A DNA stretch of 64,000 nucleotides from Candidatus Kerfeldbacteria bacterium (lineage in GTDB: Bacteria > Patescibacteriota > Patescibacteriia > UBA9570 > XYC2-FULL-38-9). The stretch spans positions 149,741 to 213,740 of the forward strand of contig JBDRKW010000006.1 in assembly GCA_043813585.1 (NCBI GenBank), read 5' to 3'. Positions 14,822-62,566 of the stretch are shown one piece after another. The notes beneath the pieces were generated by a model, which saw only the letters and a list, made by a program, of their open reading frames with translations, did not search any database and had not been told where the DNA came from. A program made the position numbers and the translations under genes. Positions within the stretch are counted from its first letter, which is position 1. Every line of letters starts with the position of its first letter.

Positions 14822-15073
14822 CTAGCCGTTGAGGCCGCGCACGAACTGATCGGTGTCGACCGTGTCGCCGTCGGAGACCATCATCGGGGCGTAGGCGCCC
14901 ATGACGGGGGTCTTGACGAACTGCATGCGGATGCTGTCGACCAGGTCTGCCAACGCGTCGCGGACGTGGTCCACGGCCTTCTCGACCAGCGGGGTACCCG
15001 CAGGTGCGAAGCGGCCGATGACGGCGATGGCGAGGATGGACAGGACGACGAAGTTCGGGTTGGAGAGGCTCAT
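14822..15073 (-). CDS. Small (83 aa) hypothetical protein with an N-terminal hydrophobic helix; GC-rich
   Basis: About 65% GC in a roughly 50% GC context. A strong SD (AAGGGGG) lies 6 nt upstream of the ATG. Confidence 0.45.
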   Translation of the reverse strand: MSLSNPNFVVLSILAIAVIGRFAPAGTPLVEKAVDHVRDALADLVDSIRMQFVKTPVMGAYAPMMVSDGDTVDTDQFVRGLNG

Positions 15074-15443
15074 AATGGCCCCCTTTCGTAATCAGTCGTG
15101 TGCGCAGTCTCCCGGAGGACAAGCTCCCGCGGGAAACATTGCAACTTGTGTAGAACGACTGCTCGGTAGCGGTAGGGATGCATTTTGCTTTCAGCAAAAA
15201 ACGCAGTTCCCTCCCTTCACAGAGCAGCTGTCCTCAAGTGCTTAATTATTTCTCTCTCACTCTTATATACTCTCTCCTGCTCTTATTGCACAAATCTGTA
15301 CAAAAGAACGAAACAGCATAGCGCACTTTTGCTGTTTTGTCAAGAGTAAAAGACGGGATATTCGCTAATTTTAGCGAAACGATATATATGTTGGTTACCC
15401 TAGCAAAATGAAAAACAGCGATGAATTCAGCTCATGAACACCA

Positions 15444-15472
15444 TTGACAAAAGCCTTTTTTCATGATATCCT
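15444..15472 (+). promoter_or_regulatory. Sigma70-type promoter (TTGACA-17-TGaTATCCT extended -10)
   Basis: TTGACA at 15444-15449, 17-nt spacer, TG-extended -10 at 15464-15472. It lies upstream of the small membrane-protein gene. Confidence 0.4.
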
Positions 15473-15536
15473 ACTTGGTCTTTTACTCGAGGAGAGAGTT
15501 TCGAGGGAGGACAGCACCTTTGGAAGGAGAAACGTC

Positions 15537-15842
15537 ATGAACACGGTTTCCAAGACCATCCGTATCTGCACCAGCTTCGCGCTAGTGATCCTCGGCTACA
15601 TCCTGCTTCACAACATTTACGCCCACATCGATGCGATCATCGGCTGCATCTCGGCGTACGACGTGGAGCCGAGCTACACGCACGAATGGATCACTCGCGC
15701 GCTGATCTGGCACGTCAAGGAGTACGTCTTCGTGAATGGAGTGACCTGCTACCTGTTGATCGGCACGCTGATCATCAGGATGAACGCACGACGACTCTCT
15801 ACTGAACTCTTCCGTCTTGGGGAGGAATATAGGGAGGCATAG
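15537..15842 (+). CDS. Small (101 aa) two-TM membrane protein, unknown function
   Basis: Strong SD GGAAGGAG 6 nt before the ATG. Two hydrophobic helices and an RMNARRLSTELFRLGEEYREA tail. Confidence 0.5.
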   Translation: MNTVSKTIRICTSFALVILGYILLHNIYAHIDAIIGCISAYDVEPSYTHEWITRALIWHVKEYVFVNGVTCYLLIGTLIIRMNARRLSTELFRLGEEYREA

Positions 15843-15935
15843 AGGTGCTAGGGGGACGAACCGCAAGCGCGATTCAGGGTGGAGACGACACGTCACCGCC
15901 CACCCCCCAGTTCCTGTGACTGCAACTCGATTGTA

Positions 15936-16500
15936 GCCAGAGGAATGAAGCTCCCCGGGCTCACGCCCGGGGTATCTTTATACCCATACAAACTTCGTTT
16001 GTCCTTTGTCCTCTTTACCTTGCTGCTCTATATATTTTTCGATAGTATTTCTGTTGACTCCGACGGTAGAGACAAAATAGCCATCTGACCATATTCCCAT
16101 CTTGTCGTTCTCGTACATATGGCTAAGGAAAGGAAACTGCGTTCTCATGGCCTTTGCACTATTGCTTTTAAGAGTACGTACGATATCAGAAACAGCGTAT
16201 TTTGGAGGAATGACTAGAAGGAGATGGATATGGTCTTCATCCGTATTCATTTCAATAAGTTCAATATCAGGTTGTGTGTTGAGTATATTTTTTATAGTGG
16301 CCATGAGATACGCTCCCATGCCTTGTTTGAGTATCTTTCTTCTATATTTGGTGACAAAGACAAGATGGTATTGTGTATAGTAAATACTGTGCGCTTGTTT
16401 GCGGTATGCGATTGGTTCACTCATACTGTGAACATACCACGCTGCGGTAAAGAGGCCAAAGGCACAGCAAGGAACCCCGGGCTCACGCCCGGGGTATTGA
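15936..16500 (-). mobile_element. IS200/IS605-family insertion sequence (tnpA only)
   Basis: The identical perfect palindrome CCCCGGGCtcacGCCCGGGG occurs at both ends (15953-15972 and 16475-16494), flanking a Y1/HuH transposase gene. Confidence 0.75.
15978..16424 (-). CDS. tnpA: IS200/IS605 family transposase TnpA (Y1 HuH)
   Basis: YHLVFVTKYRRKIL and HIHLLLVIPP (HuH) motifs in a roughly 148-aa protein. Real start MSEPIAY at 16424. Confidence 0.85.
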   Translation of the reverse strand: MSEPIAYRKQAHSIYYTQYHLVFVTKYRRKILKQGMGAYLMATIKNILNTQPDIELIEMNTDEDHIHLLLVIPPKYAVSDIVRTLKSNSAKAMRTQFPFLSHMYENDKMGIWSDGYFVSTVGVNRNTIEKYIEQQGKEDKGQTKFVWV

Positions 16501-16515
16501 CTCCGTACACAAAAA

Positions 16516-16545
16516 GAATCCCGCACTAAACGGGATTCTTTTTAT
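16516..16545. terminator. Hairpin and T-run (bidirectional terminator candidate)
   Basis: GAATCCCGcactaaaCGGGATTCttttt. Confidence 0.45.
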
Positions 16546-16552
16546 ATATACT

Positions 16553-16915
16553 CTATTTCAGGATAACCTCATGATCCGGGCACCACGCCGGATCGACAAT
16601 GCATAAAAACTTCAAATCAATATCTCCGGTGTTCTCGATAAATTGCGTCGCGTTCGGCGGAATGGAGATCACACACCCGGGACCAACCAGTTCAGTCTCA
16701 TCGCCTATTGTCATCTTCCCCTCGCCTTCCAAAATATAATAGACCTCCGACACGCTCAACGTGTGCGGTGCAGAAACGTCGCCCGGCTTCACGACCGCGT
16801 GCGCCAAGCTATATCTAAAATCCTCATCTGACTTATCCGCATGAAGAAGCTCACGCAAAATCGTATTGTCCCCGGCAATAAATTCTTCGCACTCGTCCAG
16901 CTTTCGAATAAACAT
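16553..16915 (-). CDS. Cupin domain protein
   Basis: Conserved-barrel motifs (G(X)5HXH-like HAVVKPGDVSAPHTL ... PPNATQFIENTGD). Start at MFIRKLDE, 4 nt after the folD stop. Confidence 0.6.
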   Translation of the reverse strand: MFIRKLDECEEFIAGDNTILRELLHADKSDEDFRYSLAHAVVKPGDVSAPHTLSVSEVYYILEGEGKMTIGDETELVGPGCVISIPPNATQFIENTGDIDLKFLCIVDPAWCPDHEVILK

Positions 16916-16919
16916 AATT

Positions 16920-17795
16920 CTACTTATCGCCGGTAAATCCTTCAATTCGCCGCATCGCAAGCCAGGTATTCTGCAACAGCGACACAACTGTCATCGGCCC
17001 AACGCCTCCCGGCACCGGGGTAATAAATCCTGCTTTGTCAGCAACCTCTTCCAGGGCCACGTCTCCGACAACCTGTCCTTTGTGACGGCTGATCCCGGCA
17101 TCAATCACCATCGCGCCCTCTGCAATCATATCCGCGGTAATCAAATTCGGAACGCCCGTGGCAGTTATCAGAATATCCGCTTGCTGCGTATGCGCTGCCA
17201 GATCTTCAGTGAGCTTGTGGCATATCGTTACAGTCGCGCCTTTGTTCAGAAACAACGCGGCTGTCGGTTTGCCCACGATATTGCTCGCACCTACCATCAC
17301 CACATGTTTGCCACGAATATCCACGCGCGTTGATCGCACTAGCGTCCAGATTCCTTTTGTGGTTGCCGGCACAAAAAATGGCTCGCCCATATATAACCGC
17401 CCAATGTTATCCGGATGAAACCCATCCACGTCTTTCCACGGCGCCACCGCCTCCATAATCGTATTCGCATCAATATGGTCCGGCACAGGCATCTGCACCA
17501 GGATCCCGTGGATCTTCTTGTCCTTATTGAGTTTCTCTATAATCTTCAACACCTTATCCTGTTTGATGTCCTCCGGCAGCTCCACTGTCTCTAAATACAT
17601 GCCCACCTCTTCGGACGCCTGCGACTTGAACTTCACGTAAATCTTCGAAGCCGGATCATGCCCAACCAAAACCACGGCTAATCCCGGCCGCACATCCGAC
17701 TGTGCGATTTTATGCTTTAAATCAGCGCGAATCTGCGCCGCCATCCCCTTGCCGTTGAGGATCTTCGTTACATGTGATTGTTCTTTGTTTTCCAT
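16920..17795 (-). CDS. folD: Bifunctional methylenetetrahydrofolate dehydrogenase / methenyl-THF cyclohydrolase
   Basis: Full-length FolD-family protein (GKGMAAQIRADL..., GHDPASKIYV, NIVGKP motifs). Confidence 0.9.
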   Translation of the reverse strand: MENKEQSHVTKILNGKGMAAQIRADLKHKIAQSDVRPGLAVVLVGHDPASKIYVKFKSQASEEVGMYLETVELPEDIKQDKVLKIIEKLNKDKKIHGILVQMPVPDHIDANTIMEAVAPWKDVDGFHPDNIGRLYMGEPFFVPATTKGIWTLVRSTRVDIRGKHVVMVGASNIVGKPTAALFLNKGATVTICHKLTEDLAAHTQQADILITATGVPNLITADMIAEGAMVIDAGISRHKGQVVGDVALEEVADKAGFITPVPGGVGPMTVVSLLQNTWLAMRRIEGFTGDK

Positions 17796-17877
17796 TGCTA
17801 TACTCTACCGCATTCTTGACTTTTTACAAATTCACAGATATAGTCTACTGTTCATTCATGAGTATTTAATACCTTCT

Positions 17878-18585
17878 ATGGGAGAACCACAACCCGCCCG
17901 GCAGCAGCCGGCAGAAAGCTACGATCGAGAAACAAAACCGGGCAAACGTAAAATACCGCCTGCCAGGCTTGAAGTTATTGAAGGTGGAGATGAAAGTCAA
18001 CTGCTTGATGAGGCGGCGGCCGGATCAAGTGAAGCGTTCAACCAGTTATGGAAAATGTATGATGATGAACTCACTGGATTTCTCTATAACAAAATCCCTT
18101 CATACGTTGCCAACCGCCGGGAAAAAGCCGAAGAAATCAAACAAGAGGTGGCCGTAAAAGCATGGAACAATATTCATACGTTTAAGAAAGAAGCAACATT
18201 CAAAACATGGATATACCAAATCGCAAAAAATAAATTGATCGATGAATTTAGACGAAAAAAACGCAGAGTCAAAACACGTTCTATCGACGAAGAGTATGAC
18301 GACGGGGGAAAGAAAATTGATCCCGAGGCCACAGGCCTGTCAGCTGATCCGGAACTGGCCAGCATGATGGCCGAACAGGCAGATGTCGTGCGCGAAGCAA
18401 TCAAAGAGCTTCCGTCCGAGCAAGCTGAAGCAATACGCCTGTTCCATCTTCAAGACAAATCATATTCAGAAATCGCAGAGATCCAGGGCATTAGTGAAGG
18501 AACTGTCATGAGCCGTCTGTTCTATGCAAGAAAATCACTTAAAGAAAAGCTTAGCGAAATGGGTCAAGAATTGCGCAGCGCTTAA
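17878..18585 (+). CDS. RNA polymerase sigma-70 family (ECF-type) sigma factor
   Basis: Region 2 ([19 protein letters not shown]) and region 4 HTH ([28 protein letters not shown]). TTTAAT 7 nt upstream of the ATG suggests a leaderless transcript. Confidence 0.75.
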
Positions 18586-19835
18586 CCGTACAGCGGAAAT
18601 GCTTTTGTAAGCTCGGACACCAATGTCCGGGCTTTTTGTTTCACGTTATCGTCTTCTGGATTCTTGAGTAACTCGATAATCATATCTCCGATTTGAGTCA
18701 TCTGATTTTCCTTCATGCCACGCGTGGTCAACGCCGGAGTACCGAACCTGATACCAGATGGATCAGTTGGCGGCCGCTCGTCATCAGGAATGACATTTTT
18801 ATTCACTGTGATGCCGACCTCGTCCAATAATTCTTCCGCCTGCTTGCCAGTGAGACCCAATGATGTCACGTCAGTGAGCACAATATGATTTTCTGTACCG
18901 CCAAAGACAATCTTGAGCCCTCCGTTCAACAAAGATTCAAATAATGCAGCAGCATTCTTCACAATCTGTTGGGCGTAGTCTTTAAACTCCGGCTGTGCTG
19001 CCTCTTTAAGTGCAACAGCCAACGCTGCAATCACATTCTCATGCGGACCGCCCTGTAAACCCGGGAACACCGCCTTGTCGATCTGCTTTGCGAACTTCTC
19101 TTTACAAAGAATCATCGCACCGCGCGGTCCACGGAGTGATTTATGCGTGGTAGTTGTCACCACATCCATTATCGGCACCGGATTCTTCATCACACCGCCG
19201 GCAACAAGCCCCGCAATATGCGCCATGTCCATCATACTCACCGCTCCAACCTCTTCTGCGATCTCCTGGAGCTTTTCATAATCCAAATCACGAGAGTATG
19301 ACGAGTATCCGGCCAATAAAATCTTTGGCTTCACCTCCTGCGCCTGCTTGCGAATCGCTTCATAATCAAATGCACCGGTTTCCGGATCGCAGGTGTAGTG
19401 TTCAAAGTTATAAATACTTGCGGAAAATGTTACGGGGTGTCCGTGCGTCAGATGGCCGCCATACGAAAGCGCCATTCCTAGCACTGTGTCTCCAGGTTTG
19501 AGTAATGCCGCATACACAGCCAGGTTTGCTGGCGAACCAGACAACGGCTGCACGTTAACATGCTCCGCTGCAAACAATTCCTTCGCCCGGTCGATTGCCA
19601 TCTGCTCTAACGCATCAATAAATTCATTACCCCCGTAGTACCGCTTGCCTGGGTACCCTTCAGCGTACTTGTTCGTTGCAACCGATCCGATAGCTTCCAT
19701 CACCGCTTCAGATGCGAAGTTCTCCGATGCAATCATCTCTAATGTGTTCTGTTGCCGGTTTAATTCATTCGATAATGTCTCTGCAACTTCCGGATCGTTC
19801 TTTTTGATATTTGAGTAGTCAATCATGCTGTCCAT
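18582..19835 (-). CDS. glyA: Serine hydroxymethyltransferase
   Basis: Full-length SHMT with a PLP-lysine region ([13 protein letters not shown]). Confidence 0.95.
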
Positions 19836-19868: not shown

Positions 19869-19898
19869 TTGACAAATACACCCTTTTCAGCCTATAAT
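19869..19898 (+). promoter_or_regulatory. Near-consensus sigma70 promoter (TTGACA-18-TATAAT)
   Basis: TTGACA at 19869-19874 and TATAAT at 19893-19898. It is about 100 nt upstream of the LOG-like gene, which has SD AGGGGAGG. Confidence 0.5.
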
Positions 19899-19997
19899 AC
19901 TTCGATTACCCGGGGGGAATTCCATGAAGGATTCTTCTCGTTTTGGTAATTGTACATACCACACCACAGCGCAAGCTGGTTTTAGGGGAGGCTACAG

Positions 19998-20762
19998 ATG
20001 GCAAGCGGATATTGGAAGACAGACCCACACGCCGTCATGCAGAGCGAGTGGCTGCAGCACGGCACCTGGTCCTTCAGCGACAAGGTGCGCCGGTACGCTC
20101 AGTGGATTCGTCCACAGGTCGGCCCGATGATCGGCATCTTCGGCTCGGCACGCGACCCGGAGAAGGCGCCGAACCTGCACGCCAGGTACGCCAATCGCGC
20201 GACGGAGATCGGTCGGCTGCTCGGAGAGCGCGGCGCGTCGCTGATCAGCGGCCACTGCCCCGGCCTGCCGGAGCTGACCGAGAACGGGTTCAAGGCGGCG
20301 CGCATTAGCGACCGCAAGCAGCCCGTCATCGGAGTGCGCATCGTCATCACCAAGGACGGCGTGATCTTCGAGGAGACGGACCGGACCAAGGTGGATGTCT
20401 ACATCGAGTGTGATGATTTCGGTCCCAGGATCGAGATAATGGAAGCGCTCGCCGATGGCGCCATCTTCTGCCCCGGCGGCATCGGGACGCGCCTCGAATT
20501 GCAGCTGTTCATCCAGAAACAGCAGCTCGGCAGCTACCTGGGCCGGAAGATCCCGTTGGTTCTGGTCGGCACCTCGCACTGGGCCAAGATCCTCGACGAC
20601 TTCTCCGCCCAGCAAGAGGACGAGACAATCGGCTCCCACGAATTCTGGGTGACGGTCACCGACCACCCGGAGGAGGCAGTCGAACTGGTCCTCGGCGAGA
20701 ACGGCAACAGGGACCGCGCCGAGCGAATCCTGGTCGAGACCAGCGGCGACCTGAGCATATAA
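19998..20762 (+). CDS. LOG/SLOG-family Rossmann-fold protein (TIGR00730-like)
   Basis: IGIFGSARD and FCPGGIGTRLELQLF (PGGxGTxxE) signatures. About 64% GC with a strong SD. It has N- and C-terminal extensions relative to minimal LOG proteins. Confidence 0.7.
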   Translation: MASGYWKTDPHAVMQSEWLQHGTWSFSDKVRRYAQWIRPQVGPMIGIFGSARDPEKAPNLHARYANRATEIGRLLGERGASLISGHCPGLPELTENGFKAARISDRKQPVIGVRIVITKDGVIFEETDRTKVDVYIECDDFGPRIEIMEALADGAIFCPGGIGTRLELQLFIQKQQLGSYLGRKIPLVLVGTSHWAKILDDFSAQQEDETIGSHEFWVTVTDHPEEAVELVLGENGNRDRAERILVETSGDLSI

Positions 20763-20765: not shown

Positions 20766-20800
20766 AGGGACGGACGACCCTACAATATCGTCCATCTTTT
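20766..20800. terminator. Hairpin and T-run between the convergent LOG-like and Elp3 genes
   Basis: aaaaaaGGGACGgacgaccctacaatatCGTCCatcttttttt. Confidence 0.45.
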
Positions 20801-20821
20801 TTTACTCAAACCTCGCCGGTT

Positions 20822-28361: not shown

Positions 28362-28410
28362 CCGGTATCAAAGTAAAAAAAAGCCCAGCCGGATGTTCCT
28401 CCATTCCAGA
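28362..28410 (-). terminator. Imperfect hairpin plus T8 run after the GC-rich gene pair
   Basis: The minus strand reads CCCATCTGG..(loop)..CCGGCTGGG followed by TTTTTTTT. Confidence 0.4.
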
Positions 28411-29467: not shown

Positions 29468-29501
29468 AACTCACCTCCGCTCATCATCCCGAGTTTCACC
29501 T

Positions 29502-29530
29502 ATCATATCGTCATCCGGAGGCAGGGTCAA
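29502..29530 (-). promoter_or_regulatory. Sigma70-like promoter (TTGACC-17-TATGAT) for paralogue A
   Basis: On the minus strand, TTGACC corresponds to plus 29525-29530 and TATGAT to plus 29502-29507. Confidence 0.4.
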
Positions 29531-29571
29531 CGTAAAAAAATCCGGCGAACGCAGCGATGCTGTGTTGCCGG

Positions 29572-30528: not shown

Positions 30529-30635
30529 ATCCTCCCGGAATTCGAGTTTTCAAGTGCGCATACCATAATAAAACAACGGCCTCCTGTCAACGCTGCATGT
30601 TCGATTTTGCCTGCGGCTATGGTACACTTCAAAAC

Positions 30636-39360: not shown

Positions 39361-39443
39361 TGCCGAAGGAGAGATTTGAACTCTCACGAGCTTGCGCCCA
39401 CAGCGACCTGAACGCTGCGTGTCTACCGTTTCACCACTTCGGC
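39361..39443 (-). tRNA. tRNA-Leu (anticodon CAG), long variable arm, no encoded CCA
   Basis: The reverse complement GCCGAAGTGGTGAAACGGTAGACACGCAGCGTTCAGGTCGCTGTGGGCGCAAGCTCGTGAGAGTTCAAATCTCTCCTTCGGCA has a class II tRNA cloverleaf, anticodon loop TTCAGGT and a GTTCAAATC T-loop. Confidence 0.8.
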
Positions 39444-43528: not shown

Positions 43529-43652
43529 ACTAATATATTTACTAATTTAGTGGGTATATACACCCTAGCAATACACCATAAAAAGAGCAAAAAAAGAAGC
43601 CCGTTGTTTTCCGTCCCGGGCATCAGGACGTTGCGCCTGAAGTTAGGCGCGA

Positions 43653-44408: not shown

Positions 44409-44472
44409 TTTCGTTCCTCCTCTATTTTTCGATGTTCACATTCCCTGCCTGCGAAATCATATTGAAATCGCA

Positions 44473-44501
44473 TTGACAAAGAACCGCGCATCATATACCA
44501 T
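44473..44501 (+). promoter_or_regulatory. Sigma70-like promoter (TTGACA-17-TACCAT)
   Basis: TTGACA at 44473-44478 and TACCAT at 44496-44501. It lies inside the longer upstream ORF, so the TrmB-like gene must start downstream. Confidence 0.45.
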
Positions 44502-44577
44502 ATTTAGTGAGTGGCAAATACCACCACAGAGGAGATACTGCCGCTTTTGGCTAATATCAGCCCATTCCCCTACCCAT

Positions 44578-46282: not shown

Positions 46283-46283
46283 T

Positions 46284-49922: not shown

Positions 49923-49950
49923 ACAGCGCCTATCAACGGCGCTTTTCTTG
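49923..49950 (+). terminator. Rho-independent terminator after pcrA
   Basis: AGCGCCtatcaacGGCGCTTTTCTT. Confidence 0.55.
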
Positions 49951-50080
49951 ACTTCTCTGCCTGATGCGGTAAGAAGGGTAGGTAAACCGGGCAGGAATAT
50001 GGCGGGTTTCGGGCTAATAGAGGCCCGGGGCTCAAACGATCATAGTGATCCGATTCCTGTTTGGTGCACGAGGAGAAATC

Positions 50081-51403
50081 ATGCCTAGTGGCGAAGAGGA
50101 CGCTCTGTCCAGACTTGTGACTGCTGCCGTCGACCCGTGGAAACGGACCGACAAGCACCACCTGAACCAGGGGTTGCTGGCGCTTGAAGGCAAGCACACC
50201 GACCTGCTGCCGAATGAACAGTTCAGGTGCCGGATTCCGGTGTCCGAAGGCGAGATCAAGACTGCGGTGTCCGAAGACGGCGCGGTCACAGTTGGTGGTT
50301 TGGACGATTCTGGCATGCACCAGCTGTTCGTGGCTGCGCCCGACAGCACTCGGTTCACGCCGGTGCTGAAACAGCCGGTCGGCGAGATCCGTGCGGTCTG
50401 CTTCCCAAGCGGCAGCAACCGACCGGCGTGCGTTGCCGGCGACGACTTCGACTCCTGGAGGGTCATCTGGGACGACTGGGAAGCGGTCTTCTCCGTGCCG
50501 GTCCGGACGTACCTGAACCCGTTCGCAACGCAGCAATGCTGGCTCACCTGCTGGATGGAAGACGGCCAAAAAAACGCATTCATCATGACGTACGGCATGT
50601 CCGAGATGCTGACGAAGAAACCTGATGGAACTGTCCGAATCACACACTACCCGAAAGGGGGCGCACGAGTCATCGGCGTATTCGACGGCAGTGCAGTTGT
50701 CATGCCGGACCGACGGCTGAACAAACCCATCACATACGGGGATTTCACACTCCCCAAGACGAGCGACTTCAACCGCCACCACGTCCAGGCGCATCCGGAG
50801 GGCGGCATCATCATGGTGGGCTTCGACCTCGACAGCACCACATCACCGTCCAACTTCATCGCCACCTCATTCAACAGGTCGATCAGGTACGTGGAGCAAG
50901 GAGGATTGTTCCTGGTCAACGGCGAAGTGTACAGCAACCATCTGACGGGGAATGATCCGCACAACCGGCAGAACACGGTGGTCTCGCTCGATGGCAGCTG
51001 GCAGACGAAGTCGTCAATCGCCGGAATCGCTGTACAGGGGTTCAGATACGGCGACGGTTCGCTTGCGGTCACCACGGGCCGGCTAGAGTCGCAGGTGTTG
51101 TGTCTCTTCGATCGGGACGGAAACAGTACGTTCGAGTACCGGATCGGAAGCGGGCACTTCACGCCCGACGGCCGCCTTCTCTTCCCGGGTGGATGGTACT
51201 ACCCGCAGACCTTCGCCGGCATGGAAGAGTCGATGCGGCGCACTCTCACCATAATGCCCATTCGCCTCGGGCAACGCTCACTCCACCAGATGACGCTCAT
51301 CAACGAAAACGAGCTTATGGGCATTCATCCGGTGGGCAACGGCCAGCTTGCGGTTCACCGCTGGCTGCCGATGGACCCGGACGTCGACCTGACGGTCGAG
51401 TAA
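50081..51403 (+). CDS. GC-rich hypothetical protein (440 aa), β-rich
   Basis: About 62% GC. SD GAGGAG 5 nt upstream of the ATG. No recognisable motifs. Confidence 0.5.
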   Translation: MPSGEEDALSRLVTAAVDPWKRTDKHHLNQGLLALEGKHTDLLPNEQFRCRIPVSEGEIKTAVSEDGAVTVGGLDDSGMHQLFVAAPDSTRFTPVLKQPVGEIRAVCFPSGSNRPACVAGDDFDSWRVIWDDWEAVFSVPVRTYLNPFATQQCWLTCWMEDGQKNAFIMTYGMSEMLTKKPDGTVRITHYPKGGARVIGVFDGSAVVMPDRRLNKPITYGDFTLPKTSDFNRHHVQAHPEGGIIMVGFDLDSTTSPSNFIATSFNRSIRYVEQGGLFLVNGEVYSNHLTGNDPHNRQNTVVSLDGSWQTKSSIAGIAVQGFRYGDGSLAVTTGRLESQVLCLFDRDGNSTFEYRIGSGHFTPDGRLLFPGGWYYPQTFAGMEESMRRTLTIMPIRLGQRSLHQMTLINENELMGIHPVGNGQLAVHRWLPMDPDVDLTVE

Positions 51404-51540
51404 CGTCCACACCGAACTACGGTTCGGTCCTTTTTTTACGCGGGCTTGCACGGTTCCGGGAAATCGGTTATACTATTGCCCAGTGCACGACACTTCGTCT
51501 CACCCTTTTTTAAAAAATCCATAATATATTTTGAGGAGTA

Positions 51541-51968
51541 TGGCAGCCAAAAAAAAACCTACGAAAAAAAAGCCGGCAGCGAAAAAATCCGTAAAGAAAG
51601 CAACAACGGCAAAGAAGAAACCGGCTGCAAGGAAAAAAGCTCCTACGAAAAAGAAAGCGACAAAACGCGGGTCCTCTGCCCCGAAAAAACCAACTGTCCT
51701 GAAAAGCGAAATCCTGGAAACCATCGACAGCTTTACTGACGTGGAAACGCCGCAGATGGAAACCACGCCGGAAACACCGCAGGCAACAGAAAAAGTATTT
51801 ACCTTCACGCACGTTGGCGAATTCTTTCTGGCGATCGTCATGCTCTCGCTCGTTTTCCTGACCGCCCTGTACTGGATCATCAGCGTCAGCCAGCCGGCCC
51901 TGTTTTCACAGATCGACAGCCGCGGAGGCATCTGCTCCATCCAGGAGACGCTTGCGCTCAAGCAATAG
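51541..51968 (+). CDS. Histone-H1-like basic (AKK/KKP-repeat) N-terminal domain fused to a single TM helix
   Basis: MAAKKKPTKKKPAAKKSVKKATTAKKKPAARKKAPTKKKATKR followed by FFLAIVMLSLVFLTALYWIISV. An intrinsic terminator follows. Confidence 0.5.
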
Positions 51969-51990
51969 GACAAACACACGCCAAACACAA

Positions 51991-52013
51991 ACGCCCCATG
52001 ACGGGGCGTTTTA
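51991..52013 (+). terminator. Rho-independent terminator
   Basis: ACGCCCCatgacGGGGCGTTTT. Confidence 0.6.
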
Positions 52014-52041
52014 TAATTCTGCGTTGTTGAAAAAAGAAGCA

Positions 52042-52728
52042 TCATCTGCGCAGCCTTCTCTTGATGTCATCCAGTTGGATGACATGAGCTGACGCCGATG
52101 ATGCCGGCATCGTTGTTTTTCCCGTGGTTCCTCCCATGGCGTAGACGAGCGCATGCTCGTCCTTCTCGTCCTCCTTGTCGTCGTCGCCGTCCGGGTTCAC
52201 GTCCGAAACCGCGTAGTAGGTGTCGCGGTCGATCTGGACCATGAAGGTTCCTGTCTCGTCGTAGACGAGGGTGCGGTCGGGGGTTCGCGGCGATGCGATG
52301 GTGCGGTCAGAGGTCTGCATGAGGATGCGCCGCTGGGTGCGCCACCTGTTGTAGTTGTCCAGCGCCGCCTGGAACCCGGGCGCGGAGCGCGTCGACGGGA
52401 ACCTTGGGGCGTCCTCGGTCCAGTTGACGTCGGCGTAGAACGGGATCAGCGTCTCGCTGTAGAGCAGGACATCGGCGCTGCCGTTGCCGTTGTCCCTGAC
52501 CTGCAGACGAAATCCCGACTTGGTGCCCAGCGTGAACTGGACGTCGTTGTCCAGTATGAACTTCCCGGCCGGGAAGCTCCTGTACGAGAACGTGATGCGA
52601 ACCCATGCGTAGAGCAGCCGGATCTGGAGCAGTTCCAGCTTCTCGATCATGGGTAGTGGCCGCACCCGCCGCAAAGCAGGTGTGTTCGTTGCCCGCACTC
52701 GGGTCAACGGCTTTTTCCAGCGGTCCAT
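52042..52728 (-). CDS. GC-rich hypothetical protein (about 228 aa)
   Basis: About 62% GC. The likely start is the second Met (MDRWKK), which has GGAGGT 5 nt upstream. An acidic DGDDDKEDEKDE stretch and an RRLRR tail. Confidence 0.45.
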   Translation of the reverse strand: MDRWKKPLTRVRATNTPALRRVRPLPMIEKLELLQIRLLYAWVRITFSYRSFPAGKFILDNDVQFTLGTKSGFRLQVRDNGNGSADVLLYSETLIPFYADVNWTEDAPRFPSTRSAPGFQAALDNYNRWRTQRRILMQTSDRTIASPRTPDRTLVYDETGTFMVQIDRDTYYAVSDVNPDGDDDKEDEKDEHALVYAMGGTTGKTTMPASSASAHVIQLDDIKRRLRR

Positions 52729-52947
52729 TCTGACCTCCATAGCGTTCCCTGACGGAACACTTTGGTTGGGATTGTCGATGTCCGTTGCCCAAGGCGGATT
52801 ATAAGAGTATATCCGCCCGCCCCCTCCCGGGGGCCACGTGCTGTGTGGGACTAGTCACCCTACAACATAAATTCGCCATTTGTCAAGCCATAACTGTTAA
52901 TACCGAAAATGCAGGTCACGCCCGTATATCTGCCCATATTCCAGGCA

Positions 52948-52976
52948 TTGACAAAACGCGTTGACTGACCTATAAT
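52948..52976 (+). promoter_or_regulatory. Perfect-consensus sigma70 promoter TTGACA-17-TATAAT
   Basis: TTGACA at 52948-52953, a 17-nt spacer and TATAAT at 52971-52976. It is about 45 nt upstream of the 659-aa acidic protein gene. Confidence 0.6.
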
Positions 52977-53019: not shown

Positions 53020-54999
53020 ATGCCAGAACCCAAAGGAATCCCAATTGGTCCCGCAAAGGCCGAAGCACGCCCAACGCCAGTACCGGTCAAACCGGGTGAA
53101 AGAGAAGTGCCTCCGATTACCCGCGAGGACCTGAAAGTTGTCCGGGGAGATGGCGGCGGGGAGATGGCGGCAGAACCGCAGGGCGATGACGCCTATGATC
53201 CCGCAAAAATGGAGCGGTATTATCCGGAAGATCTGTTGAATGTACTTGGCGCGAAGATCGAAGCGGCAACCGGCCAAAAAGTAAATCTGAAATACCAGGA
53301 ATTTACCCTGCAGGAAGCGGGCGGCAAACCGGGTGAAGCAAAAGCGGTTCGCAAAAACGGGGAACAGTATGCAAGCGAACTGATGCAGGCCATGACAAAA
53401 TCCGATAACAAACAGCTGGACGACTTCTACCTGTCGCGCTTTGAACCGGCGACCGACCAGGCGCTGGCGGCCAAACAGCCCCTCACTGAACAGCAGCTGG
53501 CGGCCGCAGTCGTGGCAGAAGCCGCGCGCATGGTTCATGACAACCCAAAAATACGCGAGGCGGTACTGGCAGCGCAGTTTGGTTTTACTTCCATTAATGA
53601 AATTTCAAAAGAATCACTGAATAAGAAGATAAACGATCTCTACGACGCGGAACGCGCAAAAGCCGGCGCTATGACCCCGGAGGTTGCGGCAAAGCTGCAA
53701 TCCTTTATGGATTGGCAGGAACGGCTGGAAGGCATGTTGCTTGATGCGCATGAAAAAGCGGAAAAACTTCGCGGCGAGGCGGCAGAATTGGTTGAAGAGA
53801 TAAAACTGCCGGAGCTGGATATTGAACCAATGGCAATGCCGGAGATTCCCAAAGCCGAATTAAAAGCGGAAGACCTGGAAGCAATAACGGAAACGCCGGC
53901 CGAAGCGCGCGGACGCATTGAACAGCTCCGCATAGCGCTGGACGCAGAGCTGGGCGCAACCCGCTTTGAAGAACGCGGCGTCTGGAGCCGTTTGAAAAAT
54001 ATTGCCACTGAACTGAAAGGCGCGCGCGCCAAGCAGGGCAAGCTGCGCGACCAGCTGAAACAGCTGGACCGGTTTAGCGCTGAAATGAACGATAACAACT
54101 ACAAAGAATACATGGCAAAGATGGATGCGATGCAATCCATGATGGCTGAACAGTTTGAAATCAAGACGCTCCCGGAACTGCGCCCCATAGAAGCAGCAAC
54201 AGAAGCGCCTGCTGCAGAACTCCCGCCGGAACAACAGCCGGCCACAGCAGAAGAAGAAAAAGAGCGCATGATGATCTCTGCGGAAATTGCGGATATTATC
54301 GGCATAGACCAGCCGGAGCAGGCGGCGGCGGAAGAGGAATTCTTCTCCACCGGAGCGCGCGAAACCAAGCCGGCGGCTGAAACAGATATGCCGATTGACG
54401 CGAAGGCAGTGGCAAACCTCCAGCAGCTGGAATACGGCGACCTTGAAATGATGCTCAAGCAGGTGGAGGGCCAGATGGGCGCTGAAAAAGGCGATGCGCT
54501 CAAAGCGCTGCAGATGCGCGAATCGGCGATTACCGAAGCAATGCGTACGCATCCGAGCAATGAAGGCGCGCTGAAGGCAGAAGCGGCTGCGGAAGAGGAT
54601 GAAGACATCCCGCCGACCGAACAGGCGCTTGACCTCGGGCAGCAGCCCGTGGAGCGCGTCCCTATGACCAAGCTGAAAGCGGAATACAAAGAATTTGATA
54701 CCAACGATGTGACCATTGAAGAACAGAAGATCCTGCAGGAATTTGATTTGGATACGCAATTCCTCACCGAAAAATCGATGGACGACCCGGAACGAACAAC
54801 AAAGATGCTGGTTGCGATGAAAACGCGCATCAATGAAAAAGCTGCAGAAATGAAAACGGAACTAAAAGCATCCGGCGTGACCGACCAAAAAGAAATTGAC
54901 GAGCAGGTCGGCGCATACACAGAACGGCTGTATGAGATGTATGACCGCATGTACGTGCTGGAACAACTGCCGAGACCGGAACGCATGAAAGACAAATAG
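53020..54999 (+). CDS. Large (659 aa) acidic, E/A/K/Q-rich, predicted coiled-coil protein of unknown function
   Basis: Long uninterrupted ORF driven by a consensus promoter and ending at a strong terminator. No TM or enzymatic motifs. Confidence 0.55.
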   Translation: MPEPKGIPIGPAKAEARPTPVPVKPGEREVPPITREDLKVVRGDGGGEMAAEPQGDDAYDPAKMERYYPEDLLNVLGAKIEAATGQKVNLKYQEFTLQEAGGKPGEAKAVRKNGEQYASELMQAMTKSDNKQLDDFYLSRFEPATDQALAAKQPLTEQQLAAAVVAEAARMVHDNPKIREAVLAAQFGFTSINEISKESLNKKINDLYDAERAKAGAMTPEVAAKLQSFMDWQERLEGMLLDAHEKAEKLRGEAAELVEEIKLPELDIEPMAMPEIPKAELKAEDLEAITETPAEARGRIEQLRIALDAELGATRFEERGVWSRLKNIATELKGARAKQGKLRDQLKQLDRFSAEMNDNNYKEYMAKMDAMQSMMAEQFEIKTLPELRPIEAATEAPAAELPPEQQPATAEEEKERMMISAEIADIIGIDQPEQAAAEEEFFSTGARETKPAAETDMPIDAKAVANLQQLEYGDLEMMLKQVEGQMGAEKGDALKALQMRESAITEAMRTHPSNEGALKAEAAAEEDEDIPPTEQALDLGQQPVERVPMTKLKAEYKEFDTNDVTIEEQKILQEFDLDTQFLTEKSMDDPERTTKMLVAMKTRINEKAAEMKTELKASGVTDQKEIDEQVGAYTERLYEMYDRMYVLEQLPRPERMKDK

Positions 55000-59597: not shown

Positions 59598-60626
59598 TTA
59601 CGCCACTGCGGTCCTTTCCGCTTCCTCGAACCGTCGTTTAATTTGATCGGGTATGACGGCGATCGCCAGACGATCATCAGGCTTGGCACCGCGAACCTTC
59701 CGCACCTCGTTTATCAGCGCCTGCGAAGGGTTGTCGCCCGCTTCCAATGCGGCAATGACGGTCCGCACAATATAGTCGTCCGGCAGAACGTCGCGGATGC
59801 CGTCACTGCAGCCCAAAACAATATCTTTGCGCAAATCAATCTTGCGGCTAGTCACATGCGGTTCCAACTTGCCTTCTATCCCCAGGCTCTTCGGAAGCAC
59901 GCTTAAAAATACATTCCCACGGTTACCCTCCAGCTCTTTTAACGCCTCTTCGCGCGTGCACTCTTTCGAAGCCATCACATGTTTGAGGCGCAACTCCACC
60001 GCTTCTACGCCTGCAGCAGCCAGCGCTTGTAATATGCCAGGCGTCAGCACTGTGTCTTTTTTCAGCCTCCCGCCCGGCACCTCAACGCCTGCAGCTGTCA
60101 GCGCCGCATCCACCTCCTGCTGCGGATCATCATTCACCGTAAACTGTTCAATCGTCCGTTCTTCGATGTTAATAACAAATCCCGGGCTGTCGCCGATACT
60201 TGCGCTCGTCACCCGACCCTCGTTCTCCGACAGCTTTTCAAACAATGTCACGTTCATCGTGGTCTTTCCGCCCTCCCCGTTGCGCTTCACCGCTTCATTC
60301 ATATCCGCCGTAACGTTGCGCAGATACTTTCCCCGCTTGTCCGGGTCACCGAATAACTTCGCAGCATTTTCCTGCGCAGCGGCGGCCGCAGCGCGCGATG
60401 CCTTCACGCCAGAACCTTCAGGTCCGCCCTTGGAAGCGCCGTCGTATATGCCTATCACAAATCCTTCGCCTTCGGGGGCTTTAATCAGCTGACCGGTATC
60501 CTCGTTGCGCGTCGGATGGTCCGGGCTCGCTTTGGTCGCATAACTGATCGTAAAACCGGGCTCGGTGCGTTCGCGCGCCTCCTGCGCCTGTTTTTTCGGC
60601 CGAAATTCAATGGAAGTTGTTGCCAT
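59598..60626 (-). CDS. PP2C-family Ser/Thr protein phosphatase-like protein
   Basis: IGIYDGASKGG (DGxGG-like), LGCSDGIRDVL and the terminal DDRLAIAVI resemble PP2C/SpoIIE motifs. Moderate confidence. Confidence 0.5.
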   Translation of the reverse strand: MATTSIEFRPKKQAQEARERTEPGFTISYATKASPDHPTRNEDTGQLIKAPEGEGFVIGIYDGASKGGPEGSGVKASRAAAAAAQENAAKLFGDPDKRGKYLRNVTADMNEAVKRNGEGGKTTMNVTLFEKLSENEGRVTSASIGDSPGFVINIEERTIEQFTVNDDPQQEVDAALTAAGVEVPGGRLKKDTVLTPGILQALAAAGVEAVELRLKHVMASKECTREEALKELEGNRGNVFLSVLPKSLGIEGKLEPHVTSRKIDLRKDIVLGCSDGIRDVLPDDYIVRTVIAALEAGDNPSQALINEVRKVRGAKPDDRLAIAVIPDQIKRRFEEAERTAVA

Positions 60627-60727
60627 ACATTATACGTTTATTGCTCACGCTTGTACTATATATGATGTGGGGAAGAACGCAAAAAAACGGCCTCGTGAGC
60701 CGCTTTATGATTGATATAACACAAAGC

Positions 60728-62071
60728 TTACGATTGCGCCTTCCCGCGGTGCCGCACAAAACCAAACGTTCCGAGCCCCAGCCCGAACGCGACAATCATC
60801 GTCAGCAAAGAAAATTCCGGAACAGCCCCCGCTTCAGGCCCGTTCTCATCAGCACCTTGGTCATAATTTGTGCCCACAGGCATAGGACGCGTTTGCCCAT
60901 CAATATCTAAGCCGCTAAACGTAGCAGGGAGCGAAGTTGTTCCCTCCTCTTCAGCCGGCGAACCTGTCAGGATGTGATATGTCCCATCTAATAAAGGATC
61001 TGCATCTTGAGAAGCCGCATCATCGCCAGAAGCTGATTGCCAATCACCGAGTGAAGTTGCCGGCGTACCATCCCAACTACCCACGTCTGCCGAACCCCCG
61101 GAGCTATAAATCAAATTATTATCAGAGTCCCATCCTGTTGCTGAAGCGAAGATATATAGACCAATACCTCCACTGGGTGGTTGAATGATGTTATTGCGAA
61201 GATAGGTGTTCTCACAACCGAATAACTCAATTTCTGAGCCTTCAGAGTCATCACCATCTGCAACAGTATTATGAACTAACTCTAATCCATCAGATAGAGA
61301 TCCAGAAATTTGTGCAGCGCCCGCACCAATGTCCGTCGAATTGTTATACAAAATATTATTGTGAACCACTGTATCAACAACATACCATGTAGAGCGCCCA
61401 GAAGTACCGATTATATAAATGCCGGAATAACCATTTGAATAAATGTAGTTTCGGCGTACTTCATTGTCTGCAATCATTCCCCCTAATGCGTAGATTTCAA
61501 CACCATTCGTTCCATTGCTGTAAATACTGTTATTTCGAATGATATTGCTGCTCGAATCCATAACCTGCACACCATCTTCCGTTGCATTACGTATTACGTT
61601 GTACTGAAGAATATTGCCAGATCCGCCGCTAATAACGACGTTATGCAAATCAACCCCCTGAAATATAAAATTTTCAAATGTTACGCCGGTTCTGCTGCTT
61701 AAGTTAATCCCATAATCCCCTCCTGTATTTTGGATAATCGGCGATCCTACCCAGTCGGTCCATGTAGTATTATCATGACTAAATGAATCCAATACCAACG
61801 TTTGAAGCGATGCTCCGTTTACATCGCACGTTCCTCGAACATACACTGTTTCTCCTGCCGCTACCTGACTAGCTGCATATTGAAGCGTCGAACATTCGCT
61901 TCCTACGGTACAACCACCCGAATCATTACCAGGGACATCACAATCTACATATCGGTCAGCAGCAAATGCAGCACTAGGCAAAACTACGAAAAAAGCTGCC
62001 AATAAAGCAGCAGTTATTGCAAATGTTCTAATCCGAACAGCACCACGTAGTTGTGACCGTTTTTCTGGCAC
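60728..62071 (-). CDS. Secreted right-handed parallel β-helix (PbH1 repeat) protein with a PEP-CTERM-like C-terminal sorting signal (…VPEFS + TM + RHRGK)
   Basis: Signal peptide and repeated N.I..N/GxxG β-helix rungs. The C-terminus AVPEFSLLTMIVAFGLGLGTFGFVRHRGKAQS has the tripartite exosortase/archaeosortase-signal architecture. Confidence 0.5.
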   Translation of the reverse strand: MPEKRSQLRGAVRIRTFAITAALLAAFFVVLPSAAFAADRYVDCDVPGNDSGGCTVGSECSTLQYAASQVAAGETVYVRGTCDVNGASLQTLVLDSFSHDNTTWTDWVGSPIIQNTGGDYGINLSSRTGVTFENFIFQGVDLHNVVISGGSGNILQYNVIRNATEDGVQVMDSSSNIIRNNSIYSNGTNGVEIYALGGMIADNEVRRNYIYSNGYSGIYIIGTSGRSTWYVVDTVVHNNILYNNSTDIGAGAAQISGSLSDGLELVHNTVADGDDSEGSEIELFGCENTYLRNNIIQPPSGGIGLYIFASATGWDSDNNLIYSSGGSADVGSWDGTPATSLGDWQSASGDDAASQDADPLLDGTYHILTGSPAEEEGTTSLPATFSGLDIDGQTRPMPVGTNYDQGADENGPEAGAVPEFSLLTMIVAFGLGLGTFGFVRHRGKAQS

Positions 62072-62233
62072 CTTTTTTTGTTTTAAGAAGATAAAGGCAG
62101 AATTGCCCCTATCTAAAGATAGTATAACACAATTTCATTATTAATGCAAGCCTTCTTTCATTGACACCCCTCTGCCCTATTGATACCCTCACTTTCCAAG
62201 GGATCGCATGAAAAATGCGAGAAAGGGGGAAAA

Positions 62234-62566
62234 ATGACCAGGGAATTCACTGTCAACATGGAGGATCAGAACTCCATCGGTCACGCATTCGTGGTAATGC
62301 TGATTCACCGCTATCTGCGGTACCCGGAACAACTCCGGGTGCAGATCCAGCGGATCGACGACAAGAATGTCGTGGTGCACATCCGCGCGCACCCGGTCGA
62401 CAAGGCCATGCTGGATGAATGGAAGCGCACCAACAGCAGCCAGCTGATTGCGCTCAGCACCATGCTGGCCCTGCACGCGCACCAGAACGTACTCCCGATC
62501 TACAGCATTCGGGATCACAACAGCCCGCTGCCGGGCGACACTGCATCGCGGAAGAGTATCGCGTAA
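62234..62566 (+). CDS. GC-rich small hypothetical protein (111 aa)
   Basis: SD GAAAGGGGG 4 nt upstream of the ATG. About 62% GC. A terminator-like hairpin and T-run follow at 62567-62615. Confidence 0.45.
   Translation: MTREFTVNMEDQNSIGHAFVVMLIHRYLRYPEQLRVQIQRIDDKNVVVHIRAHPVDKAMLDEWKRTNSSQLIALSTMLALHAHQNVLPIYSIRDHNSPLPGDTASRKSIA

Follow-up and report, generated by a model that had tools for sequence, protein, structure and literature searches.

GC-rich, Shine-Dalgarno-led genes dispersed among the core genes of a Candidatus Kerfeldbacteria bacterium: recent import or a conserved accessory class?

In a 64,000-nucleotide stretch of DNA from a Candidatus Kerfeldbacteria bacterium (assembly GCA_043813585.1, contig JBDRKW010000006.1, positions 149,741 to 213,740; hereafter the window), eight GC-rich genes, designated HG1 to HG8, stand singly or, in the case of HG3 and HG4, in tandem among core genes, from which they differ in base composition and in the strength of their Shine-Dalgarno (SD) sequences. 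The question raised by this locus is whether such genes were imported from a GC-rich bacterium or belong to the lineage in which they are now found. A reading of the window made earlier from its sequence (hereafter the original prediction) had contrasted SD-less or leaderless core genes with a dispersed set of high-GC genes, and had offered two interpretations of the latter, a foreign gene set delivered by an IS200-like or integrative element, and a distinct regulon. The window (52.9% GC) derives from a metagenome-assembled genome (MAG; locus tags ABIG66_; contig of 219,487 bp). The gene content of the window is typical for Patescibacteria and includes a type IV pilus cluster (458-12305), ychF, folD, glyA, an Elp3-like radical-SAM gene, PGM and IMPase, together with gpmI, MurD, trpS, RNase J (37473-39299), a tRNA-Leu, a solute-binding protein, uvrD, uvrC and uvrA. 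The best matches of its UvrD are Patescibacteria MAGs (62-70% identity). No rRNA gene was detected in the window by Rfam.

The class HG1-HG8 was contrasted with 45 other window genes, giving a sample of 53. Coding strands were chosen by an amino-acid log-odds score, and SD strength was expressed as the predicted free energy (dG) of the duplex with the 16S tail, this organism's own 16S 3' end lying outside the window. Ten open reading frames (ORFs) of 60-65% GC had been proposed, with nine sets of coordinates; eight of these are real members, although HG8 has a GC content of only 58%, while the ninth (53020-54999, GC.541) falls outside the class. GC3 denotes the GC content of third codon positions.

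14822-15073, minus strand: HG1, GC.659, GC3.94, SD dG -10.7 kcal/mol
19998-20762, plus strand: HG2, GC.639, GC3.87, SD dG -11.2 kcal/mol
28415-29467, minus strand: HG3, GC.626, GC3.82, SD dG -10.8 kcal/mol
29572-30522, minus strand: HG4, with the ATG start called by the Prokaryotic Genome Annotation Pipeline (PGAP), GC.63, GC3.83, SD dG -10.3 kcal/mol
43653-44408, minus strand: HG5, GC.620, GC3.82, SD dG -12.0 kcal/mol
50081-51403, plus strand: HG6, GC.604, GC3.78, SD dG -8.9 kcal/mol
52042-52728, minus strand: HG7, GC.619, GC3.83, SD dG -10.0 kcal/mol
62234-62566, plus strand: HG8, GC.583, GC3.82, SD dG -10.7 kcal/mol

These genes, about one in seven (∼15% of window genes), have GC contents of.58-.66 and GC3 values of.78-.94, versus GC contents of.42-.57 in the 45 others, and they are the exact top eight of the 53 both by GC and by the use of G/C-ending two-fold codons. 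Their reading frames are genuine, as seen in the order GC3 >> GC1 > GC2, in positive amino-acid log-odds and in the calling of the same genes by PGAP. The GC enrichment is present at all three codon positions. At four-fold sites the GC content (GC4) of the class,.76-.92, overlaps that of the GC-richer core genes (.78-.85), and class and core have the same preferences (CCG>>CCC, GCG>GCC, GGC); the difference between them sits at two-fold sites and in protein composition. The class uses GAG for.75 of its Glu codons (core,.34), AAG for.78 of its Lys codons (core,.4-.5) and TTC for.89 of its Phe codons (core,.4-.55), and it favours NNC for Phe, Tyr, Asn, His, Asp and Ile (.78-.90). Arg and Lys account for 7.9 and 3.2% of its residues, as opposed to 4.7 and 6.4% in the core, and R/(R+K) is.65-.80 versus ∼.4 in the other genes. 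Such composition and codon usage are atypical for the genome, a trait by which acquired islands are recognized. The GC excess is nevertheless confined to the coding sequences (CDSs), because the flanking non-coding DNA is native in composition (.46 GC beside HG1-HG8 versus.43 in core intergenic DNA), with edges that are sharp within ∼100 nt. Long antisense ORFs overlap HG2, HG3 and HG4, owing to the lack of TTA, CTA and TCA codons in the class genes. Overlapping antisense genes were rejected as a cause of the GC-richness, since for most genes the antisense ORFs are no longer than in synonymous shuffles.

The SD sequences separate the two classes most sharply. All eight class genes carry an SD core 4-8 nt upstream of the start codon (dG -8.9 to -12.0 kcal/mol), confirming the well-spaced GGAGG-type sites of the original prediction. 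A dG of -8.5 or lower was found in 8/8 class genes versus 2/45 others (Fisher p=5e-8), and both core exceptions are doubtful: PilD (-8.6, spacing ∼14 nt) and a cupin ORF (-9.3) of uncertain start. The enrichment is not a composition artefact, because only 2% of 20-nt windows inside GC-rich genes score equally, so that 8/8 has a chance probability of ∼3e-14; the same background rules out the SD as a by-product of G-rich DNA. GC by itself is not formally bimodal in the 53-gene sample, SD strength is, and the two are uncorrelated among the 45 other genes (rho -0.04). The pattern is a step, not a gradient, and the continuous variation of GC and SD usage that would speak against two classes was not found.

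Each class gene is built as a stand-alone unit. A TTGACA or TTGACC -35 element with a -10 element at 16-18 nt lies 30-130 nt upstream of HG2, HG3, HG4, HG5, HG7 and HG8 (a clear promoter in 6/8), and is followed by the leader, the SD, the GC-rich CDS and, in HG2-HG8, a hairpin-plus-T-run terminator. The consensus promoters originally ascribed to the class are not exclusive to it, as core-type genes have them as well (e.g., 52948-52976). The core, including genes internal to operons, is indeed without SD, but few of its genes look leaderless. Leaderless-type spacing, with a -10 element ending ∼6-8 nt from the start codon, was observed for PilD (TATAAT, 6 nt), folD (TAGAGT, 6 nt) and RNase J (AATAAT, 7 nt), whereas in most of the remaining core genes the promoter-like sites stand 20-70 nt before the start, which would give short SD-less leaders. 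Over -30..+33, the AU-rich start regions of the core fold only weakly (mean -9.0 kcal/mol), in contrast to the more folded class start regions (mean -13.5 kcal/mol; p=.006). The leaders of HG1, HG2 and HG7, the three tested, are significantly structured (z-scores -2.1 to -3.3). No riboswitch or known RNA was detected in the leaders, as Rfam returned the tRNA only, even at E <= 1. The signals are as follows.

15079-15085, minus strand: HG1 SD, AAGGGGG, in a structured leader
19869-19898, plus strand: HG2 promoter, a perfect TTGACA-18-TATAAT that is kept in the sister species
19905-19950, plus strand: predicted 5'-terminal hairpin of the HG2 leader (∼100 nt)
19984-19991, plus strand: HG2 SD, AGGGGAGG
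20767-20803, plus strand: hairpin and T-run terminator common to HG2 and the convergent Elp3-like gene
29471-29479, minus strand: HG3 SD, CGGAGGTGA, before a GTG start; promoter at 29502-29530, terminator at 28375-28399
∼30531-30536, minus strand: HG4 SD, GGGAGG, before the ATG at 30522; promoter TTGACA-17-TATGGT at 30562-30590, terminator at 29534-29571
44415-44423, minus strand: HG5 SD, AGAGGAGGA; promoter at 44490-44517, terminator at 43589-43620
50070-50075, plus strand: HG6 SD, GAGGAG; own terminator at 51411-51437
49948-49976: weak candidate promoter of HG6, with a TTGACT -35 and a poor -10, directly 3' of the uvrD terminator (separate scoring gave no good promoter)
52734-52738, minus strand: HG7 SD, GGAGG, in a highly structured leader of ∼120 nt; promoter TTGACA-18-TAGGGT at 52857-52886, terminator at 51983-52012
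62224-62229, plus strand: HG8 SD, AGGGGG; promoter with a TTGACA -35 at 62161-62189, terminator at 62569-62610

The PGAP starts of HG2 (241 aa), HG3 (281 aa) and HG7 (202 aa) lie downstream of the SD-preceded starts, by 26 codons in the case of HG7; the longer starts of HG2 and HG3 are also covered by orthologue alignments.

The original prediction held that none of these genes had an assignable function, yet functions or folds could be given to HG2, HG3, HG4 and HG5. HG2 is a LOG-family (PF03641/SLOG) nucleotide-processing enzyme, which scores 47.8 bits against PF03641 (cut-off 27) and 34 bits against PF18306, and does not reach the NCBIfam equivalog cut-offs set for PpnN and for cytokinin LOG. 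Its PGGxGTxxE motif reads PGGIGTRLE and is invariant in the alignment. HG3 comprises a helical N-terminal half and a C-type-lectin-like C-terminal domain (residues ∼185-335), which has more than 100 distant relatives and is modelled at a predicted local distance difference test score (pLDDT) above 90; its top fold matches in the PDB are almost all C-type lectin domains, all of them weak (E >=0.09, target TM-score 0.4-0.5). HG4, its tandem neighbour, is a distant paralogue that shares 24% identity with HG3 over 54 aa. Members of the HG3 domain family at two related loci, L079 and L084, are true targets of diversity-generating retroelements (DGRs), with variable repeat (VR) and template repeat (TR) pairs in which 20/20 mismatches fall at TR adenines. 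The targets are GC-rich and paralogous to the C-terminal domain of HG3.

L079, 14844-16114: DGR with VR at 15256-15368 and TR at 15751-15863, beside bAvd
L084, 53-2549: DGR with VR at 508-628 and TR at 1015-1135, beside bAvd and a reverse transcriptase

The window itself was found to hold no TR/VR repeat, Avd or reverse transcriptase. A DGR acting there was rejected on the lack of TR/VR and reverse transcriptase, third-position adenines not being selectively depleted either.

HG5 has a signal peptide (...AHAQE) and the C-terminal sequence ...VVLDF, and its AlphaFold2 model (pLDDT 86.9) is a beta-barrel of 11-12 strands. Wherever its PDB matches are informative, they are to porins or to autotransporter barrels, at weak significance (E >=3e-3, TM-score 0.3-0.5). 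As modelled, the protein has the signal peptide, closed antiparallel barrel and C-terminal aromatic residue of an outer-membrane-type barrel. An outer membrane is usually said to be missing from Patescibacteria, and a barrel of this type is odd in such bacteria. HG1 is an 83-aa protein with a hydrophobic N-terminus, encoded by the GC-richest gene and called identically by PGAP (MFH1426243.1); HG6 (440 aa) and HG7 (228 aa) are orphans, and HG8 has 110 aa. No PDB sequence relatives were found for HG6 and HG7.

For the traceable proteins, the search for a donor led back to the same phylum. Homology searches were valid for the six proteins HG2-HG7, HG1 and HG8 being outside them, and the HMMER representative search used HG3, HG4, HG5 and HG7 joined as one query. 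Homologues were obtained for 4/8 proteins, and all that could be placed, by source name or by a recovered contig, belong to Patescibacteria (Kerfeldbacteria-like or Uhrbacteria); no homologue outside this group was found for the six, and no foreign donor taxon emerged. HG2 has only four relatives, all of Patescibacteria type, and the two with recovered contigs (L020; L021/L022) lie between glyA and Elp3; a metagenome scan with the LOG alignment found none. HG6 matched its own entry only, among 5.8 billion proteins, and HG7 only itself in the full HMMER scan. By tblastn, HG5 had no match among plasmids and HG6 none among phages, PADLOC gave nothing, and no PHROGs phage family matched HG1-HG8 save for a weak SLOG/DprA-like match of HG2.

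No integrase, flanking or att-like repeat, or adjacent tRNA was observed, the sole tRNA (39360-39443) not neighbouring a class gene. The IS200 element proposed as a vehicle is represented by one gene, a non-member.

15978-16526, minus strand: IS200-type Y1 transposase gene, GC.42, no SD

This gene lies ∼900 nt from HG1 in the ychF|folD slot and near no other class gene, and it was not seen at the recovered loci of relatives that have GC-rich SD-led genes. An AT-rich gene with such a distribution was rejected as the vehicle.

The orders glyA|LOG|Elp3 and IMPase|HG4|HG3|hyp495 are common to the window and to the Logan SRR1716514x organism, whose HG3 and HG4 orthologues (58% and 31% identity) stand in the same order beside IMPase; glyA|LOG|Elp3 also occurs in GCA_042568075.1. 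At the four-fold sites of conserved residues, the distances between orthologues are.81 for LOG,.93 for HG3 and.88 for HG4, within the core range of.66-1.11, all near saturation for this composition. At synonymous sites HG2, HG3 and HG4 have therefore diverged as far as the core genes, from which vertical descent of the three follows. Upstream of each, the -35, -10 and SD can be aligned between species, as can the start codon, but the remaining leader has diverged; the hairpin of the HG2 leader is at the same position in the sister species with a different sequence. GC-richness, SD and promoter persist in orthologues although synonymous sites are near saturation.

A deeper comparison is available for HG5, whose family includes two Uhrbacteria proteins, and for the TrmB-family regulator gene that diverges from it.

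44578-45354, plus strand: trmB, with its start corrected to 44578; promoter at 44473-44501

The HG5-trmB pair is divergent in four Kerfeldbacteria- or Uhrbacteria-type genomes (window 43653-45354; L081 6283-8717; L082 1568-3102; L085 7117-8663), and the two promoters overlap within a 170-nt spacer. HG5 is GC-rich in 4/4 (GC3.76-.90 versus.49-.63 in its neighbours), while trmB is AT-rich in 4/4 (GC.44-.47, GC3.51-.57). Both genes have the same closest genome pair; across the six pairs, their pairwise identities give a Pearson r of 0.78 (p=0.07), and a rank correlation is not significant. As the adjacent and apparently co-inherited genes deviate in GC in opposite directions, a single donor cannot explain both.

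The same two classes were encountered in related genomes, in which GC-rich genes occupy variable slots between syntenic core genes. One conserved order is RNase J, solute-binding protein, slot, uvrD, slot, uvrC, uvrA, hyp305; the other is ychF, slot, folD, glyA, slot, Elp3, methyltransferase and, farther on, PGM, slot, IMPase, gpmI. The GC-rich slot contents of these relatives are given below.

L025: core GC.41-.47 (GC4.33-.45); glyA/Elp3 slot with a 2.9-kb block of GC.64, coding for cytidine deaminase, GTP cyclohydrolase II and two unknowns, with a strong SD in 3/4
L001: core GC ∼.45; HAD phosphatase and two unknowns, GC.59-.63
L020: core GC ∼.50; LOG, NDP-hexose dehydratase, PNP/UDP phosphorylase and two small genes, GC.60-.67
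L021 and L079: core GC ∼.58; LOG, HG4 and HG3 orthologues and a DGR target, GC.63-.68

Class composition is near-constant across these genomes (GAG.67-.82, TTC.87-1.0, R/(R+K).70-.79), while their core GC4 runs from.33 to.86. A few GC-rich SD-bearing outliers also occur in more distant loci, where the data are thin. Several slots are empty: ychF|folD (HG1) in L020, PGM|IMPase in L025 and uvrA|hyp305 (HG8) in L001; the slots of HG5, HG6 and HG7 are filled by other genes in L001. Presence at the same locus in relatives is mixed, HG2, HG3 and HG4 being present and syntenic in the sister species, and HG2 in L020 as well. The L001 contig (CAYFNF010000001.1, 335 kb) has the gene order of the window at 57-81% protein identity, and its title, 'uncultured Gammaproteobacteria', is probably wrong. 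In L025, the GC-rich block forms part of a nucleotide-salvage cluster (11594-18547) of four GC-rich and four AT-rich genes; read from their translations, the AT-rich four would encode an NTPase-like protein, a PfkB-type kinase, a possible phosphoribosyltransferase and a phosphoribosyl pyrophosphate synthetase.

Taken together, these observations favour, at a probability of roughly 0.5, a second gene class that is lineage-wide in Kerfeldbacteria/Uhrbacteria-type Patescibacteria: stand-alone, SD-dependent and accessory, fast-evolving in several members, and with a composition maintained by selection. A conserved accessory class is preferred to a fresh import because relatives keep the same genes with the same traits, and the class composition is probably maintained rather than decaying. 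Plain transfer followed by amelioration is hard to reconcile with orthologues inherited vertically, with the HG5/trmB pair and with flanks of native composition, and a dispersed foreign set brought by an IS200 or integrative element is unsupported for the traceable genes, given their Patescibacteria homologues, synteny and flanks; the alternative of a distinct regulon is compatible with the results. The products comprise lectin-fold binders of the DGR-target type, a TrmB-regulated beta-barrel family, a LOG enzyme and four unassigned proteins.

Under this reading, the class traits would be held by selection on coding and mRNA sequence, and would not be a remnant of recent import. The SD is probably functional in class genes, being conserved and well spaced; in L001, AAGGAGG also precedes an AT-rich gene for a Lys-rich protein, which suggests that SDs are in use in this clade. 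An SD may be needed since GC-rich messages would be too structured around the start for the SD-independent route, and the 5' hairpin and strong SD would, by analogy, probably also shield the message from RNase J. The genes would then form a separately controlled, stable-mRNA expression class serving mainly host-interaction and salvage functions.

Several points weigh against the conserved-class reading. The LOG gene of L020 is less extreme (GC3.69), as partial amelioration predicts, and slot contents that differ between relatives are the usual signature of gene gain. Arg-rich, Lys-poor proteins are expected from long residence in a GC-rich genome; the Arg/Lys shift otherwise needs selection on nucleotide content itself. 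Four proteins (HG1, HG6, HG7 and HG8) are without homologues, the valid searches covering only HG6 and HG7 among them, and a foreign origin is possible for all four. AT-rich islands of enterobacteria keep their atypical composition over comparable synonymous distances, for which reason the comparison of window and sister alone leaves room for slow amelioration, countered only by the deeper HG5 comparison, that is, by one family. We infer SD function from conservation and spacing, with the 16S 3' end outside the window, and the stable-mRNA class from sequence. In Parcubacteria, some half of the 16S sequences were found to be devoid of an anti-SD motif (PMC9297842).

Acquisition from GC-rich donors that use SDs and lie outside the Patescibacteria (e.g., hosts), as single cassettes entering integration hot spots and ameliorating slowly, would account for composition, SD, promoters, terminators and an excess of Arg over Lys that resemble a 62-68% GC bacterium, for slots that vary or stand empty in L020, L025 and L001, and for the lack of detectable relatives of HG6 and HG7 (HG1 and HG8 lying outside the valid searches). 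A signal-peptide beta-barrel with a C-terminal Phe is a diderm-type protein, and horizontal gene transfer (HGT) into Patescibacteria is documented (PMC12455944). We nevertheless judge this origin unlikely, as it is opposed by the exclusively Patescibacteria homologues among the six searched proteins and the empty plasmid and phage searches, by the vertical descent of HG2, HG3 and HG4 with conserved regulatory DNA, by the four genomes in which GC-rich HG5 adjoins AT-rich trmB, by the native non-coding flanks, and by the lack of integrase, att-like repeats and flanking tRNA, the IS200 gene being unrelated. Only a little more credit, and still well short of an even chance, is given to a GC-rich pool circulating within the Patescibacteria (an unseen plasmid or phage, or GC-rich sister lineages) and re-seeding the variable slots. 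Such a pool would explain a near-uniform class composition over a core GC4 of.33-.86 and cassettes built like stand-alone 'moron' units, and most donors of the transfers recorded for Patescibacteria are themselves members of the group (PMC12455944). Its hint of exchange between relatives comes from glyA, whose GC4 is.50 in the window (18582-19835) and.78 in the sister species (L022 172-1416), while neighbouring core genes agree between the two genomes; this difference may reflect allele replacement by recombination with a lower-GC relative. However, synonymous distances of HG2, HG3 and HG4 equal to those of core genes argue against recent replacement, promoter and leader co-diverge with the gene, and the pool would need GC-rich CDSs with non-coding DNA that is not GC-rich; no recovered Patescibacteria locus has a core above ∼58% GC, and neither PHROGs (apart from the weak HG2 match) nor the two tblastn runs revealed a carrier.

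Explanations that do without transfer fare less well. Expression-linked codon bias, with the class as the most highly expressed genes, is improbable. It is in keeping with the NNC preference (.78-.90) typical of translationally optimal codons, with consensus promoters and strong SDs, and with the AT-richness of trmB, a gene expected to be weakly expressed; but in L084 GC3 is lowest in the ribosomal-protein genes (.27-.38), which lack an SD and lie beside a class member of GC3.74, the pilin, solute-binding protein, glyA and gpmI genes of the window are core-like, and the Arg shift is not an effect of codon choice. Moreover, translational selection is as a rule weak in slow growers with one rRNA operon. 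A neutral process acting regionally (GC-biased gene conversion, or a mutation bias local to recombination-prone slots, with the SD as a by-product of G-richness) is more improbable still, and largely refuted. The class genes do lie at synteny break points and are GC-enriched at all three codon positions; the excess, however, ends at CDS edges, leaving adjacent intergenic DNA and core gene ends unaffected, and these sharp boundaries already contradict it, as do the opposite deviation of trmB and SD sites that stand at 4-8 nt at a strength matched in only 2% of windows of the same DNA. An artefact of chimeric assembly, binning or wrong-strand ORF calls can be given hardly any weight: the source is a MAG and long antisense ORFs cover HG2, HG3 and HG4, but the chosen frames have the coding signature and positive log-odds, the antisense ORFs follow from absent TTA, CTA and TCA, PGAP calls the same genes, and they sit between core genes in independent NCBI, JGI, ENA and Logan assemblies.

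No tested model accounts for the GC excess along the whole CDS. Transversion-driven GC pressure on fast-evolving proteins fits the window and L079 (core GC4 ∼.8), but was rejected because it fails for the conserved LOG, L025 and L001 (core GC4.33-.45). Tentatively, and at rather long odds, two translation regimes may coexist in one cell, an SD-independent core default and a conserved, SD-dependent, GC-rich set for host interaction and salvage. CDS GC-richness would then itself be selected, for message structure or stability or for the suppression of AU-rich internal entry sites, and accessibility of the 16S anti-SD, or heterogeneity among ribosomes, could switch the class as a translational regulon. 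That composition and signals match those of a GC-rich diderm host because the products or messages act in or on that host is a speculation to which we attach very little probability.

The class resembles several known systems in part. Like the atypical genes and islets of Lawrence and Ochman, it deviates in GC, codon usage and amino acids and fills slots that vary between relatives; unlike them, it is GC-rich rather than AT-rich as usual, confined to CDSs, kept in vertical orthologues and in a cross-order family, and free of integrases, att sites and tRNA anchors, and its traceable homologues are in the same phylum. The promoter-gene-terminator unit of differing GC between genes of conserved order recalls the phage morons of Hendrix, but the units here are chromosomal, without a prophage and, save for the weak HG2 match, without a PHROGs match, and several have conserved orthologues. 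SD-led and SD-independent or leaderless starts also coexist in mixed-initiation genomes (GeneMarkS-2 classes; mycobacteria), where the mode is set mainly by operon position, whereas here the SD-led genes are a distinct GC and codon class. Bacteroidia are reported (Jha 2021; McNutt 2023) to avoid the SD genome-wide, their anti-SD being occluded and the SD retained by a few genes such as rpsU. As in Bacteroidia, most genes here are SD-less with A-rich starts, and a small strong-SD set could form a translational regulon; in contrast, the set is accessory, GC-rich and much larger (∼15% of genes), and no evidence of anti-SD occlusion or of bS21 involvement was obtained. In Firmicutes, STAB-SD sequences and 5'-terminal hairpins that block RNase J act as 5' stabilizers, to which the 5'-terminal hairpin and strong SD, in a genome encoding RNase J, may be likened as a functional analogy only. 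HG3 and HG4 share their C-terminal domain family with the VR/TR targets of L079 and L084, but carry an extra helical N-terminal half and have no TR, Avd or reverse transcriptase in the window. HGT and genomic islands are documented in groundwater Patescibacteria, mostly from other Patescibacteria (PMC12455944). In the literature, no description of a conserved GC-rich SD-led class was found, nor a paper combining Patescibacteria, codon usage and ribosome binding sites. The class would extend two known kinds, accessory genes of atypical composition and mixed initiation modes.

A class of this kind has practical consequences. Gene finders and start models for Patescibacteria need two models per genome, as PGAP appears to misplace the starts of HG2, HG3 and HG7, and composition-based HGT screens would here flag vertically inherited genes as foreign. 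GC-richness that is limited to CDSs and persists over deep divergence misfits the amelioration model and points to selection on the nucleotide content of messages. The class also supplies a short list of candidate host-interaction genes of uncultured symbionts, nucleotide-salvage enzymes among them, trackable in metatranscriptomes, and a concrete means of testing whether SD-dependent translation serves as a regulatory channel in a mostly SD-less bacterium.

Among the non-members, the ninth gene of the original prediction encodes an acidic protein that is conserved in the uvrD|uvrC slot, its L001 version having 861 aa (14347-16932).

53020-54999, plus strand: acidic Glu/Ala/Lys-rich protein of 659 aa, GC.541, GC3.58, no SD

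It is preceded by a perfect TTGACA-17-TATAAT promoter (52948-52976) and a 43-nt SD-less leader, and its long antisense ORFs are a composition effect. In the same region, the minus-strand ORF 'hyp181' (51500-52045) is probably a shadow ORF, the likely real gene being on the plus strand (51540-51968) and coding for a Lys-rich, C-terminally membrane-anchored protein; its L001 orthologue (12238-12927) is the AT-rich gene with an AAGGAGG SD mentioned above.

Outliers of the opposite kind, AT-rich (GC.42-.46) and without SD, were found at 15978-16526 (the IS200 transposase), 17749-18585 (an ECF sigma factor), 45461-47639 (a methyltransferase and a pyridoxal phosphate enzyme) and 60728-62071 (a beta-helix protein). 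Coding fragments of RCC1 repeats in two frames (GC ∼.60) on the minus strand at 63407-63951 are possibly a frameshifted or decaying GC-rich gene. Finally, 247 nt of non-coding DNA located 3' of HG1 (14575-14821) have a GC content of.56, versus.43 in other intergenic DNA, and could stem from a GC-rich gene that has decayed, or encode a small RNA.

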